Shown: one piece after another, positions 26,994 to 34,564 of the stretch
Position numbering within the stretch: the first letter of the stretch is position 1
Layout: every line of letters starts with the position of its first letter
Notes under the pieces: model-generated
Databases searched by the model: none
Told to the model about the DNA's origin: nothing
What the model saw: only the letters and a program-made list of their open reading frames with translations
Assembly: GCA_023920165.1 (NCBI GenBank)
Contig: CP089277.1
Coordinates: 682,001 to 746,000, forward strand
DNA length: 64,000 nt
Source: Curvularia clavata
Taxonomy: Eukaryota
Direction: 5' to 3'
Translations under genes and position numbers: made by a program

Positions 26994-29234
26994 TCAAGCA
27001 TACGTCCTCACTCCCCTTTCATCACCATGCCTGAAAAACCCACTCCCACTGAACCCCTCTTCCTTTGGCGTGATCCACTCATCAGGCGACGCAACACCTT
27101 CTGTGCTTGATCTCTGCGCCAAGTCCTCGGAGTAAACGCTCTCGGAGTCATGGCGCCAGCCGTGCTGTGCGCCATGGGAGTAAAAATTGGTGTCTTGGTT
27201 GCGCGAGTTGGCACGCGGAGTGGAGCAGCTCATGCGCTGACTGTCTTCTGAGGACGAAAGGATGAGCATGTCGGGGGATGGGGTGGGGTAGGAAGGCGAA
27301 GTGGTAGCGCCGCTGGCGATGAGTTTGTTGACGAGGGCATGGAGATTAGAGAGGTCGTCTTGGAAGGTTTGGACGCGATGTTCCAGTGCTATTCGCGCGT
27401 TTCGCTCAAGCTCGAGTTTGGCGTGCATGTCTTGCAGGGCCTTGGCTTGTTCGGTGTTGCTGGGACCATGAGCGACGGGCGCAGTCCATGTTGGAGAGTT
27501 GGTCACGGGTACAGGCTCGTCTGCTACGGGTGCACTGCTACTCTGACGGCGAAGCTCTTGGTGGATGCTCGGTGCAGAGCGCGAGTGAGACCGTGACGCA
27601 GATACGGAAGTACTTCGGTCTCTTGATCGAAGGTTCCGGGGCGCGTTTTCAAGGATGATGGTTTGTCTGTTGTTGCGGGATGAAAGGCGGTGAGTGAGAG
27701 TTTCAAGGTCGGAATACTTCGTCTCCAGCCGTGCAACACGCTCCTCTATCGAAACTCGCTTCTCACTCGATGACGGAAGAGACTGCTCCGGTGAGATTTC
27801 TTCCTTGGCAGGCTCATGAACTGGTTCGCGTTCTGCCGGCGGCGGGCCGACCAGCACGGCGTTGTCCAAATCGCCGAAATTGAAATTTGAGACCGGGACT
27901 TGCTCGACTGCGTCTTCCATGTGCTTTGGCGGTTCCGCTTCTGGTGATGTTGGTGTTTGAGGATCATCGGCTTGCACAAGCGTAGCGCTCATCTCGTTGA
28001 ATGACCCCACTTCTGGCTCCTGGAAGGTCGGCTCTTGCATCTGCACACTGCGGAGGGTCTCTGGCTCCGCCGACCTTGCTGTTCCAGGTCGGCTGTAGAC
28101 ACTTGCCGACATGTAGCTCTGTCGCCAGTATTTAATCTCGGCACTTCTTCTTCTCTCAGTCGAAGCGAATCCCTTGGCTATGTCATGAAGAGCATCTGCA
28201 CTCCGTGATCTGCGCCGGTCTGGTTTCGAGGTCGCTTGGAATGGGCTGGAGACGGCAATGCCGATACCAGAAGGAGATATTTCATCTTCTTCCTGCCTTT
28301 CATCCCAGGTCGCCATGTTTGGCCGCGACTCGTCCAAGCTGTGGCGATGAGCAACAGCGCTGGGGATTGTAGGGAGCGTAGCCCTCCGGCGGCCAAGGTC
28401 CGGCCTGTTCACGTCGAAAGTAAGATATTCATCAGGCGGACTGACTGGTGGTGCATTCACGTTCATTGGGTAAGGCAAATGCTGGCCCAAGGGGTGCAAT
28501 GGCTCCAGCTCCTTGACCGGCAAATCAGAAATGCGCGGCCCAGCTGGAGACGGAGATTTTCGTGCTTCTGTTGGTGGTGTCGATCTTAACAAGCCCGGAT
28601 CCTATACAATGTTAGCAATATAACGTCACGTGTTCCACAATTCACTTACGCTATGGTGATAGCTGTGGCCGCGACGCGTGGTCTCTTCCTCCTGATGGTG
28701 TTCTGGCTCGGGACTCTTCTTGCCGAACATCTTGCGGAAGACATTCCTGAGTCCGCTTTTGCGCTTCTTCTGCACATTCTTTGCAGCGGCGCTTTCGGGC
28801 GTTGACCGGAAAGGCGTCGGAGATGCGAGGCCGCTCTGGGGCACGACGCTGTCGCGCTGGATGATGGTCACCGGCTGCATATTGAGCGGTGATCTCACCG
28901 GAGGGTGCTCTTGCGCTTCCTCGTGTTGCTGCGACTGCTCTGCGACGAGATTTGATCGCAATGGCATGGGATGGTCCGAAACTGCTGGTGGAGAATGCAA
29001 GGGCCTCGGCGGAGACACAGATTGTTGGCGCTGCTCTTCGAGCGACGTGTCTGGCGGATGAGTGGCTTCATTGCGTGCTGCATTTTCTGCGTACTTCTTC
29101 TCTTCCTCGTCATTCAGCGGCGTGTCCTCGGTGATAGGAATGGGGCCGCTAATCTTTAAATCCCCCCTCCTGATAGCTTCGGCCTTCCAACTGGACCGGT
29201 GCAGTAGCGAAGGCGGCGATGCCGATGCACTCAT
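26994..29234 (-). CDS. Hypothetical disordered protein with two coiled coils
   Basis: Likely ATG 29234 (MSASASPPSL..RRGDLKISGPIPI); intron 28602-28649 joins the 253-aa and 532-aa ORFs. Coiled coils SIEERVARLETK and LELERNARIALEHRV. Confidence 0.8.
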
Positions 29235-29637
29235 GTTAGTGACGACGAAGCCTTCTCGTTGAAGCATGGAGGTACCGAGGCGATTTCCGGGAAGGGAAAT
29301 AACGTCAGTGTAAGGCGGGCCACTTTTGGAGATTGCGGTGTCGTAGTTGCGACAGGGATGCCTCAGTTCAGACGGTGGCGCTTCCAACGACCATCACCAC
29401 TTGTGCAAGCCGGTGTGCATTCGAGAAGGGCGACGGAATAGCCAAGCCAGTGCGGAAACGATTCCTTCGTTGTGCTAAAGAAAGAAATGATGATTGCTGG
29501 CGAGTGGGAACAATCTGCTGGAAAGAATTGACAAAAGGGCTGGAAATGAACAAAAATAGAATGGAAGCAGATTGGGCAAAGACAAAGAGTGACGAGGTTA
29601 AACAACGCGAGTAGTAATGGGTATGCAGTGCCACCGA

Positions 29638-30363: not shown

Positions 30364-31764
30364 ACGAAGGCGAGTCCAAGGGCCGACAGCTCGCGACCGC
30401 CCCACTCCCATGGACAGGGCCTCAATCCTGTGTCGTGCGTCCGTCGCAAGTGACATGTCCGCCAGGCGAGTCTAGGTTTGTGGTTGGCGCCGCCATGTCA
30501 TGAAGATAGAAGCCTCTTTTTTGGCTGCCCTCGTCGGTCGCGTTCGTTTAAGTCCCGAACCTTGCACTGTCAATCCCCCCTGACCTCATCCGTGCATTAA
30601 CGCGTTTGAGAAGGTCGACCCTAAACCCTAAGAGACAACCAACAGGCTGCCTGGGACGGGCTACATTTGCTCAGGCCCTCTGCTCCCCTCCTCCCCCACT
30701 CTCCAAGATACCGTCTATCGTGAATTTGTTTGGTACTCTACTGCAGGTGTTGATGTAAACTCGCATGAGCACGACGACCAACGAGAGGCCAAGACAGCTT
30801 CAACGCTCAGCACATTCGGTCCAGAGCCGAGTGCCCTGACAAGAGCGTTGAGAAGCGGCTGCGACGTGGCCGAGTCCGCCTGGCTCGCGCCGTTTTGATC
30901 TGTCTTCATTTCTTCCCTTTTGTCATGCCATATGATACCTCTACATCCGCGCGTGCCCGCTGATTGTATGCGTACTCAGTTAGGTTGGCTGCGCCATTGT
31001 ATTGGATTTTGCATTTGCGACTCGCCAGCCGTCACACTCTAACCTGCACATCACACACACTCATGGTAGCTCCCGCGCCGAGAGAGGGTTTTGTGGCTAC
31101 GTTGCGTTACCGAGCACATTACTCGCAGCCGCAGTCTTTTTCCCATCTCGTGGTTGCGTGCGCCCGCAGCAGAAAAAGGACCCTTGGCGTATTCGATACG
31201 CACGCCCTGCTGCTGCTAGATGCTGCATGTCGAGAGGATAGCTTTGCCGTCGTGCCGTCGTCGGCAGCACTCCAAGGCTCGTATTGTCCAGCCAGCATAG
31301 CGCGCCGGGGCTTGGTGTTTGATCGTATGGTCAGTCTCAACCTGGGACGCGCTTTTGACGCTGGACTACTGCAGCTAGAGTCATGGCCTACCGCCGTCTG
31401 TATGTGTGAGCTGCAGTCGCTTCGGTGCCGCCGCTGAGCCAAACCACCGCACGGATGCAGCGTCGTGGCCGCCACAGCGCTTGGGCCGCCCGGCCAATAA
31501 CAAGCCACCGAACATGCGCGCAAGCCATTTCCCCACATCCTCTTGCTTTTGTCTGTTCATTGCTCCAACAAAGCCATTCTGGGCACAGAACCACTCTCCT
31601 CTGACAGTGTTTGTTTGTGATGCCGCGGCTCGCTTGTCGATCCAACACCGATAACAACTTGAGCTGCGGCCCACAGTTCCACGGTTGGCCCCATGTCGCA
31701 GCCTCTTTCTCCCCCCTCCCCCCTCCCCCCATGCTGCACGAGCAATATCCTCCCGTCTTGCCAT

Positions 31765-34564
31765 CTATTTCGTTTGGTCCGCGTAAACGTCCGCGAGGTT
31801 CGGGTACCTGAGATCGGCGTGATCTTCTAGATGCTGCATCCACGCTTTGAGGAACTTTGAACCACTACACGACAAAACATTCAACATGTGTTAGCAATCA
31901 ATGCATATTCAAGTTGCTTTTTGTACGGCCACCACCGCCGCTCTTTGCCGTTGAGTATGCTGTATGTACGGCGTCCCGGGGGCATGGGTGTGGTATGCAG
32001 ACGACAGGGGAGAGGTGCGTGGAAACTCTGGCAATGACAAGACAAGGGAGCATGTGTCACGGCAGTTTCATCCTTTGGGTCCACTGAGTCTGCCTCTGCG
32101 CGCGGGACGCGACAGGCACAACCTCAAGTTTCAGGATCCAAAAGAGGCCGCACACAGCAGTGGGCAGAGGTTGATTGTGGGATCAAAAGGGAAGGACGGC
32201 GTCTGCCGGGGTCATAGATTAGGAACGCAGTGGATACGTACCTGCCAATTGTGTCCGAGTCTCCAATCACACAGAGATGCCGCTTCGGGCGTGTCATGGC
32301 CACTGCAATGCTCTCGTCAGCTCTTGATCAAAAAGGCTCGCTGCAGATGGCAATTCAATGCGTCGATATTGCGGCCCGATGGTGATTGGCACTTTCGTGA
32401 CGTACCATTGAGTCGTCTCTTCTCGCCCAGAAACCCAACTTCATGCTCTGTGTTGCTCCGCACCGTACTGACAATGACAGCTTCCTTCTCCCTGCCCTGG
32501 AATCCGTCAACGGACCCCAGTTCGATGCCAGGATATTCCTCTTTAAGCATCCCGGCAAGCAATGCGAGCTACTCACGTCAACCTTCGTCCCGGCTGCCGG
32601 TATACGTATGCCTACCTGTGCATTGTATGGCGTAACCACTGCAATGTCCTCGGCCTTTACGCCGGCATTGACCAGATTTCCGACGTGCATCCTCACCAAT
32701 GCTGCCTCAGCCTCGTTGCACTTACTATCACCTAGACTCATGCCTTTGCCTCCTTTCCCAATCACACCCTCGTCTTCTGTCTTTTCAGGAAAATCTCCTC
32801 CCTGCGTGTCCCAGAAGACCAGAGGTTCCCGCGTGTCTTCAGTGTCCTCAACCTCATACTTGAGGTCCTTGAGCAGTCGCTCCTTGACAAAATCAGCTGC
32901 GATGAGCTTCGAATCATAGAGCTCGTCGGACGGAAAGCGCATGATCTTCTCATGCATTCGGTATTGCGTTGTGAGCATCCGCTTGATCGACGGGCCGTGC
33001 AAGGACAGAAGTCGATCGAACAATGTTGTCTCCAGGGTTATACCCTCGAGCGGCTTTATCAAGGATCTATCCGCATCATCTTCCGACGCCTTGGCTTTCT
33101 TCTCTTTGCTCTTCTTTGCAGATTTGGCGTCCTTGGAATTCAAGGACTTAATAGTCGGTGGTAATTGCAAGTGGTCACCAGCCAGCACCAGTTTGTTTGC
33201 CTTGACCCACAGAAGAGGCACCCAGCACTGCGCCTCCAGAGCCTGACTCGCTTCATCCACAATAACAACGTCAAACTCTTGCCCCTTGATGTGAAAACCC
33301 CCCGCCCCGTGTAATGTGGCGAGTACCACCTTACTCCCCGTGACGAGGTTGTTGACACATCCCTTCTCTCGCTCTCTATACTCCTGACGTAGCTCTTTCA
33401 GCTCCGTGTAAATCTGCCGCCGTTCTTTCGCGTTGCGTGTCTTGCGAATAGACGATTGTTTTTCGTCCATCTCTTTGCGGACATCTTGGACCAAGGCAGC
33501 GGCTTCTGAAGTTCGAGTGAGTACGTCCAGAGAGTGATTGAGCACTGACGGCAGGAGGCGTGCTGGATGTCCCAAGCGTACCATGGGTACCTTGTGAGGA
33601 GCTAGCCGCTCGACAATGTTGTCCACTGATATGTTAGAAGGGCCGCATACTAGTAGACGTAGTTTTTGCTTGACAAGTTGTAGAATTAGTTCAATGAGGG
33701 TGTGTGTTTTTCCTGTGCCGGGTGGCCCATGGATAAGAGCGACTTCTCGTGAGGCTAGCGCGAATCTGACAGCTTCTTTCTGGCTATCATTCAGTGAAGG
33801 GTCATTCCATTCGAGCTTATGAAGTGGATTTGAAGGGTCGTTCAAATCAGATGGAAGAGGACTTGGCGACGCCTGTCCAAACAGCACTCGCATGAAAGGC
33901 GTATACTCTTGGTCCCCGAGTTTCTGGAGCCGGCTCATAGTCTGGTTCATCCTATCATCAATGAGCAATCACGCAAAGCTGTTTGGTCGAGGAGAACATT
34001 TGTAGGCAGCAAAAACGTACCTTTTGTAGGTGACGTCGTTGGCCAATTTGACTCTAATCCACATATCAGCCTCCACTGTCCTATCGCAGCAGCACCACAA
34101 GCCCATTTTGCGTAGACTGACATCCATAATTTGCTGCCACTCGGCACATCCGCATCCTCTTTATCCAGCACAATTTCCACATTCTCCCGCCGCACTCTCA
34201 GCACAACACCCTCGACGCCTTTCTTCTCCAGCTCTTTCTTCTCGACCTTCTTTGCGCTTCCGCTAGGCTGGTCCTGCACAGAGATTATGTCGCCGACGCG
34301 GATGCCGTGCTCAGGAATGTCGGGTTTCTCGCCTTTGGCCACAACGGCGGAGTCCAGGCCGAGCTCGACAACTGTCTTGCCGCCTAGTCCTGTACGTATG
34401 GAGGATACAGTAAGGTTCAGAATTGCGAGGCCGGCGCGGGCGAGGGCCGTAGGCGTGTGCGACGAGAGCAACGCATTAGTCTCTGAGAGTTCGGCTTGAA
34501 GCTCGGCGTCGAGAAGCGTTAGTTGCGAGGCGGCGAAGGAGGGGATGTCTGTAGGATTCGACAT
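31765..34564 (-). CDS. HCS1: SF1 Upf1-like helicase Hcs1 / IGHMBP2 (SMUBP-2)
   Basis: Introns 34054-34121, 33952-34020, 32569-32615, 32303-32405, 31865-32241. Motifs [51 protein letters not shown]; last exon [22 protein letters not shown]. Confidence 0.93.

Follow-up and report, generated by a model that had tools for sequence, protein, structure and literature searches.

A long terminal intron with a conserved central island, found spliced and unspliced in RNA, in a predicted IGHMBP2/Hcs1-family helicase gene of Curvularia clavata

Intron retention is a frequent type of alternative splicing among filamentous ascomycetes. Barta and Iggo reportedly found in 1995 that the DBP2 helicase gene of budding yeast is controlled through a poorly spliced, conserved intron. 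Here we describe the last intron of a predicted helicase gene of the IGHMBP2/Hcs1 family in Curvularia clavata, which is 377 nucleotides (nt) long, occurs in RNA in both spliced and unspliced form and carries a strongly conserved island near its middle. The gene lies on the minus strand of a 64,000-nt stretch of contig CP089277.1 (assembly GCA_023920165.1, positions 682,001 to 746,000), which as a whole we call the window. According to PMC4695336, expression of the fission-yeast dbp2 helicase is limited by decay-promoting or poorly spliced introns, and a preprint on the plant DRH1 helicase genes (bioRxiv 10.64898/2026.01.23.701338) describes a conserved RNA element, the 'DEAD' element, that gives feedback on splicing. 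With these systems our locus has in common a helicase gene, an intron close to the 3' end that is conserved or of unusual length, intron-containing RNA and a conserved intronic element; it differs in that dbp2, DBP2 and DRH1 code for DEAD-box helicases of superfamily 2 (SF2) with demonstrated feedback, whereas here the predicted helicase belongs to superfamily 1 (SF1), feedback is only proposed and no RNA structure is supported. In the open-access literature that we searched no report of an intron element in a fungal HCS1/IGHMBP2 gene was found. Compared with regular U2-type ascomycete introns, the window intron has the same GT-AG ends, CTAAC branch site, RNA-supported excision and unspliced form, but it stands apart by its length (against 47-103 nt in its neighbours), which is a clade-wide trait, and by its conserved island. 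Both the island and the retention are genuine, though of a kind already known, and the long nested rod of seven helices into which an initial annotation had folded the whole intron is not a real feature.

The large exon of the gene (33951-32616) matched the IGHMBP2 family model TIGR00376 with 373.6 bits (curated cut-off 348.9), the solved SMUBP-2 helicase structure 4b3g with an E-value of 4.4e-90, and the Pfam domains AAA_11 and AAA_12. The nearest named proteins, 'DNA polymerase alpha-associated DNA helicase A' and SMUBP-2, come from Pleosporales (e.g. Stemphylium, Alternaria) and are 91-92% identical. Judged by homology, with a score above the family-model cut-off, the host gene is thus an IGHMBP2/Hcs1-family helicase, and because of these family-model, structure, Pfam and named-protein matches both the HCS1 label and the Dothideomycete setting given to it by the initial annotation appear reasonable.

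To follow its RNA, assembled contigs of four public runs (X6, X16, X17 and X18) were placed on positions 31400-33000. X6 carries the same organism label as the window, and that it is RNA is a guess resting on three spliced joints; X16 is a root metatranscriptome and X18 a soil metatranscriptome. Assembled contigs give neither strand, nor ends, nor reliable levels, and in X16-X18 the uncovered parts (31865-31995 and most exons) are uninformative. The 3' part of the gene is laid out as follows:

31765..31864, minus strand: last coding exon, with the stop codon TAG at 31767-31765 (open reading frame 31765..31890; peptide conserved in relatives)
31865..32241, minus strand: terminal (fifth) U2-type spliceosomal intron, 377 nt (GT..AG ends, RNA joint, position shared with relatives)
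31890..31895, minus strand: GCTAAC, the branch-site consensus, with its branch A (31891) 26 nt ahead of the 3' splice site (from sequence)
32124..32126, minus strand: in-frame stop upon retention (open reading frame 32124..32327)
32236..32241, minus strand: 5' splice site GTACGT (from sequence, with RNA joint)
32242..32302, minus strand: penultimate exon, 61 nt (RNA joints on both sides; tblastn to relatives)
32303..32405, minus strand: neighbouring intron of 103 nt, used as control (joint 32302 to 32406 in X6 and X16)
32569..32615, minus strand: neighbouring intron of 47 nt, used as control (joint 32568 to 32616 in X6)

The X6 contigs contained three joints, one skipping exactly 377 nt (31864 to 32242; contig depth 46.4), one skipping the 103-nt and one the 47-nt intron, and all three show CT..AC on the plus strand. 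The terminal intron, GTACGT...GCTAAC...TAG on the minus strand, is therefore excised in RNA at precisely these positions. Its 3' end is TAG, CTRAC-type motifs lie at the matching place in the introns of relatives, and with GT..AG ends, a branch site and excision in RNA all present it is a U2-type spliceosomal intron. It is also the last intron, because the X6 contig extends from 31866 to 31400 with no further joint. The remaining introns of the gene are short, as had been annotated, at 47 and 103 nt from RNA joints and, for the two 5' introns, 68 and 69 nt from sequence and homology to the proteins of relatives, so that the terminal intron has 3.7-8 times the length of its four neighbours.

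Unspliced RNA was found in all four data sets. In X6, a contig of 435 nt (31837-32271, depth 16.3) spans the entire intron together with both junctions, while the flanking exon contigs have depths of 33-39; by this crude contig depth, roughly a quarter to half of the transcripts in X6 contain the intron. No X6 contig lies within the 103-nt intron, which argues against genomic DNA as the source of the unspliced contig, holes in contig cover being no proof of full splicing. A 201-nt contig of X16 (record 4) joins 32454-32406 to 32302-32151, with the 103-nt intron removed and the last intron unspliced over the 91 nt that the contig extends into it. The same combination of a spliced upstream intron and an unspliced last intron was seen in X18, in a relative 90-95% alike, where the loose end behind 32303 is upstream exon, and a contig of X17 crosses the 5' splice site unspliced. 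Fully constitutive splicing, which the initial annotation had named as an outcome that would count against it, is thus not the case. Coverage by the metatranscriptome contigs is limited to 31996-32303, which takes in the 5' two thirds of the intron, and ends around 31996-32038. Neither a cassette exon nor a nested intron fits X6, whose contigs show no form besides the complete 377-nt joint and the wholly unspliced intron.

Retention of the intron leads to 38 different residues and then to the in-frame stop listed above, just as the initial annotation had it. The reading frame of the retained part is not kept, however, since the window, when aligned with its nearest relatives (alignment A1; 8 rows, 7 of them distinct), differs from them by a 1-nt indel, and in the relative seen in X18 a segment of 66 nt is swapped for one of 67. 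Because these indels break the frame, the conserved 5' part of the intron is non-coding, and an alternative C-terminus encoded by the retained intron was rejected on the same grounds.

Metagenome contigs were scanned with part of the large exon, which gave 80 loci at 59-88% protein identity, and the intron was located in them by a script via the two conserved peptides that flank it. An intron with matching site and phase and GT..AG ends was present in 56 of the 80, and in 6 more the ends were a few bases off the rule; 7 had no intron, two of which (L005 and L021) resemble spliced mRNA contigs, and in 11 the contig ended ahead of the site. Among the 69 loci with both flanks found, 62 have an intron at the site, and they reach down to about 60% protein identity, so the position is old and not a recent insertion. 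The intron-less loci include L042, L046, L047, L059 and L061, some of them on contigs of 25-251 kb; L042, L046 and L047 retain the intron between two upstream exons, and these cases therefore look like genomic losses rather than cDNA. In the 56 rule-conforming loci the intron measures 54-166 nt in 38 and 174-329 nt in 18, mostly the closest relatives, and the 377 nt of the window are the maximum among 48 distinct intron sequences. The intron is hence long (174-377 nt) in the nearest, Pleosporales-like clade, and part of its length in the window is owed to a private insertion:

31950..31985, minus strand: insertion of 36 nt private to the window's lineage, carrying the 3' arms of rod helices 3 and 4 (gapped in at least five of the seven other A1 rows)

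Outside the island the window intron is 47-54% identical to those of relatives, and in BLAST comparisons the island was the only part of it that they matched. The relatives themselves have a core of about 100 nt in common (79% identity over 102 nt between L001 and L010). The conserved elements are:

32034..32060, minus strand: small hairpin, GUGACA (32060-32055) against UGUCAU (32039-32034), identical with rod helix 7 (pair probability 0.96)
32035..32071, minus strand: central island, intron positions 171-207, made up of an invariant 16-mer, a pyrimidine-rich loop and a short 3' arm (from an alignment of six lineages)
32054..32069, minus strand: invariant 16-mer GAAACTGCCGTGACAC (exact in the window and in 9 of the 80 loci)
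32122..32135, minus strand: second element, CCCGA.AACGTGGG in relatives, where it is conserved, with the degenerate copy CCTGAAACTTGAGG in the window

The 16-mer (also written GAAACUGCCGUGACAC) occurs once per locus wherever it is found, always within the orthologous intron. When the 3' end of the gene was aligned over 1.4 kb across the six lineages, it was the longest invariant run of all, the maximum in exons being 11. In the island bins (32071-32042) 23 of 30 columns are invariant, an exon-like level, compared with 27% in the whole intron, 28% in the other introns and 25% in the 3' untranslated region (UTR). Shuffling the 759 non-coding columns never gave a run of 16 in 5000 trials (maximum 12) and gave 23 of 30 once in 5000. 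A sequence model of the island matched only these introns in the 361 kb of relatives' loci and the window, which together represent about three deep lineages (the window; L001, L004, L006 and L028; L010 and L011). Judging from this pattern of conservation, the island is under strong purifying selection. Two features of regulated retained introns are accordingly seen here, a conserved cis element and, by rough contig depths, intron-containing RNA at an appreciable level.

The island overlaps the two innermost helices of the proposed rod, but what is conserved in its 5' arm and loop is the sequence. Its hairpin has 4-6 bp, a loop of about 15 nt and a consensus energy of -2.47 kcal/mol. In its layout, the motif UGAC is followed by a pyrimidine-rich run and then by AG. 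Searches for a fixed pairing partner of the island, within 70 nt downstream and then in the whole intron and flanking exons, found partner places that vary by lineage, and 8 of 10 duplex partners were no better than shuffles at the 5% level, so these duplexes were not accepted as evidence. Three pairings picked out by eye, namely of the block GUGGG to CCCAC/CCUC, of CCCCUG in the loop to CAGGGG at the 3' splice site (in two lineages) and, in the window, of CUGCC to GGCAG at the exon end, were rejected because they depend on alignment shifts, consist of 4-6 G/C base pairs or are not found in all three deep lineages. Likewise set aside were a diverged island copy in distant introns, as the likeness to TGCTGTAACAC in L008, L013 and L017 was only an impression from alignment A3, and a likeness to part of the U6 small nuclear RNA, for which the Rfam models gave no match. 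In the more distant relative L019, the intron (L019:1202-1450) carries the 11-base core of the island in reverse complement, GTGTCACGGCA, at about position 195, and has no forward copy. The second element has a wider reach: AACGTGGG was found in 10 of the 48 distinct orthologous introns (0.11 expected; e.g. L001:1842-1849, L008:5170-5177 and L013:5210-5217), the window not being one of them, and the CCCGA.AACGTGGG block, about one third into the intron, extends to more distant relatives than the island does.

All seven complementary pairs from which the rod was drawn occur in the sequence just as listed; the outermost and the innermost pair each include one G-U. The structure as drawn is not strictly valid, since base 32146 is used by two helices, and one pair was dropped there before energies were calculated. 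The minimum free energy of the intron was -109.5 kcal/mol, compared with -104.2 +/- 5.6 for 100 dinucleotide shuffles (z = -0.96), 15 of which were as good, and its plus strand gave z = +1.25. The rod alone amounts to -44.9 kcal/mol, and enforcing it yields -97.3 against -109.5 for the free fold, which is 12 kcal/mol worse; the mean pair probability is 0.0001-0.026 in the five outer helices and 0.96 in the two innermost, which form the local hairpin. The intron and 300 dinucleotide shuffles were also compared by the best chain of nested, collinear helices, each of at least 5 bp, that a script could find in them. Chains of at least seven helices turned up in all 300 shuffles and chains of at least 45 bp in 295; the best chain of the intron has 11 helices and 64 bp, against shuffle means of 9.8 and 54.7, with 64 bp reached by 14 of the 300. 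Among the 26 inverted pairs of at least 6 nt, the longest is internal and measures 14 nt at 86%.

In the six other distinct rows of A1, the 8-bp helix 4 has no letters at all and helix 3 is gapped in four to six; helices 1, 2, 5 and 6 are 45-60% paired, and helix 7 is paired in 90.5% of cells with no change on both sides. Of the conservation expected for the structure, the rod thus shows none, two of its helices lying in the insertion private to the window, while the island of about 35 nt at the two innermost helices is conserved. All 12 orthologous long introns tested (a set that leaves aside L080 and L015) had z-scores between -1.42 and +1.20, none better than shuffles, so that the comparison with shuffles that the initial annotation had proposed gives values near zero in the window intron and its orthologues alike. 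Consensus folds were weak both in the near clade (-19.15 kcal/mol, covariation term +1.48) and in four more distant introns (-14.33 kcal/mol). The near-clade RNAalifold consensus holds 6 pairs changed on both sides, a number equalled by 174 of 500 shuffles; its covariation score exceeded 499 of 500 shuffles, but such an excess is possible without structure, and these tests are weak in power because only about three deep island-carrying lineages were compared. A rod of this kind would bring donor and branch point closer together, as in a known case, but here its helices are neither thermodynamically favoured nor conserved. The single long nested rod does not hold up: seven helices in a GC-balanced sequence of 377 nt are a chance outcome, and there is no whole-intron structure. 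In the long introns of L008, L013, L017 and L016, more distant and outside the window's clade, a conserved ACGUGC/ACGUCG just past the branch site can pair with the 5' splice site GUACGU, which makes 6 pairs in the consensus fold of these four; the pairing is absent in the window's clade.

Several known classes of intronic element were also considered. Introner-like elements are described in PMC3609843 as present in hundreds of copies, longer than other introns and stable in predicted structure. The window intron resembles them, on that account, in being longer than regular introns and in its Dothideomycete-like genome, but it differs in having no structure beyond that of shuffles, an old position and no copies in the sequence searched: the best other matches in the 64-kb window were 13-23 nt (E at least 0.83), and in 361 kb of relatives' loci none lay outside the orthologous intron. 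The introner-like origin suggested initially is therefore not borne out. Symmetrical stwintrons of Hypoxylaceae share with the present intron the idea of a long fungal intron folding back on itself, and according to PMC8469720 they have inverted repeats of 45-55 nt at their termini and exist in numerous sister copies; this class was rejected, as the longest inverted repeat found here is the internal one noted above. A scan against Rfam, which had also been proposed, found no known RNA family in the window or in the loci of four relatives, returning only a noise match to mir-622 in an exon of the window (15.8 bits, gathering score 86) and nothing at all in the relatives. By eye, no C box (UGAUGA), D box (CUGA), H box or ACA box stood at invariant columns of alignments A1 and A3, and hosting of a box C/D or H/ACA small nucleolar RNA (snoRNA) was dropped with no motif and no Rfam match to support it. 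A precursor of a microRNA-like RNA (milRNA), one of the roles envisaged at the outset, is rejected because the conserved hairpin is too short.

The 3' surroundings of the gene yielded some further observations. One X6 contig of 5407 nt starts in the last exon and extends about 4.9 kb beyond 31400, towards lower coordinates, so that transcription seems to be continuous from the 3' end of the helicase gene into the region of the next minus-strand gene (open reading frame 28626-29393). About 25 nt past the stop codon, in the 3' UTR on the minus strand, lies the G-rich low-complexity tract GGGGGGAGGGGGGAGGGGGGAG (31700-31742), which drew two unrelated 31-nt contigs of high depth from the X16 metatranscriptome. 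Public Pleosporales models of the helicase disagree at the 3' end: two of the ten compared are fully correct (P0007, P0045), two partly correct (P0003, P0072) and six truncated or reading into an intron or a wrong terminal exon (P0001, P0004, P0005, P0015, P0027, P0039). Gene prediction thus seems to have been misled by the long terminal intron.

Taken together, a slowly spliced or retained terminal intron with a gene-specific cis element is the explanation that we favour, though only tentatively. An ordinary U2-type terminal intron, at an old and widely shared site, has been lengthened in one clade and is excised slowly or incompletely, so that a sizeable share of transcripts keeps it. In these transcripts, the conserved last 33 residues of the helicase are swapped for 38 unconserved ones, and the retained form would lower functional output because the conserved C-terminus is lost and a premature stop with a long 3' tail is gained. 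We infer that on the pre-mRNA the island would act in cis, as the binding site for a factor that recognises its sequence and tunes splicing against retention and, through it, helicase dosage; since its layout of UGAC, pyrimidines and AG resembles a 3' splice site, it could conceivably act as a decoy 3' splice site. Of the splicing switch suggested initially, control of splicing or retention is still conceivable, because splicing is not constitutive and the island is strongly conserved, while the whole-intron structure plays no part. A number of points weigh against this explanation. No observation ties the island to splicing, and the unspliced RNA can be explained by late splicing of a long last intron without any regulation, the metatranscriptome contigs stopping after its 5' two thirds, as expected of nascent transcripts. 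The RNA evidence comes wholly from assembled contigs. The island is confined to about three deep lineages, and long introns further afield gave no match to its model; the relatives' core of about 100 nt has decayed in the window save for the island, and the second element has been lost there. Compensatory changes for the hairpin were not found in relatives, the AG lies 23-29 nt away in three of the six distinct sequences and 49 nt in the other three, and the reversed 11-mer in L019 would fit a site acting at the DNA level.

These objections come together in a less likely but still plausible account, in which the intron is merely long and spliced late, its unspliced RNA is passive and the island has a role other than splicing, for example as a protein-binding site at the DNA level or within an overlapping transcript; where fungi recognise short introns as units, a terminal intron of 377 nt would be spliced late for its length alone. 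Consensus splice signals, the missing global structure, the nascent-like 5' coverage and the reversed core GTGTCACGGCA in L019 all suit it, as does the 5.4-kb X6 contig, whose extent far beyond 31400 indicates overlapping or continuous transcription; an invariant sequence without covariation is what a site read as sequence, on DNA or RNA, would show. Such an account does not explain, however, what has kept a long intron and its core in place in lineages that are about 50% identical elsewhere in the intron; an island in the middle of a last intron, more than 2 kb from the next coding region, would be unusual for a fungal promoter element, and the unspliced X6 contig covers the full intron with both junctions. 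A more specific extension of the retention reading, which we consider improbable, is that the 16-mer and hairpin serve as a feedback sensor, the Hcs1/IGHMBP2 helicase or a partner binding or remodelling its own pre-mRNA and shifting splicing against retention and decay. By analogy, this would be a Pleosporaceae-specific counterpart of the DEAD-box DBP2/DRH1 loops, and new for SF1 helicases, if such a loop operates at all, which we doubt.

When an unusually long fungal intron holds a conserved island, this is often a snoRNA, and the window intron might then host a small stable non-coding RNA (ncRNA), atypical snoRNA-like or orphan, with the island as its conserved core. The precedent and the common core of about 100 nt in relatives speak for it, but without an Rfam match of note or box motifs at invariant columns, with the core decayed in the window and only weak consensus structures in both groups of introns, we regard it as very unlikely. 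Fainter still is the prospect of a decay-promoting intron of the fission-yeast type, in which U(U/C/G)AAAC would recruit a YTH-domain Mmi1-like factor and the exosome, a mechanism that PMC4695336 describes for the dbp2 and rps2202 introns. In its favour, the window intron holds TGAAAC twice, at positions 109 and 172 (about 0.17 expected), and one copy overlaps the start of the island; the hexamer, however, occurs once each in L001, L004, L006 and L028 and not at all in L010, L011 and 11 more distant long introns, and what is invariant is not the hexamer but GAAAC together with 11 more bases. A conserved cluster of Mmi1 motifs (determinants of selective removal) was consequently rejected, the hexamer not being conserved across orthologous introns. 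The whole-intron rod, finally, as a helicase-sensed switch, a milRNA or ncRNA precursor or an introner-like element, retains almost no credibility. In its favour, the seven pairs do exist, the intron far exceeds its neighbours in length and its best chain is slightly richer in base pairs than most shuffles; this is outweighed by a z-score near zero, chains of seven or more helices in every shuffle, an energy cost of 12 kcal/mol, five helices with pair probabilities of at most 0.026, helices 3 and 4 in a window-only insertion, orthologues no better than shuffles, short inverted repeats, an old position and the lack of other copies in the sequence searched.

The retained-intron explanation with its cis element has the advantage of being directly testable, because the target is only 16 bases. 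The question also reaches beyond this species, as the human counterpart of the helicase is a disease gene. If the island does control retention, intron-based control of dosage would reach beyond DEAD-box helicases and take in an SF1 helicase of filamentous fungi.

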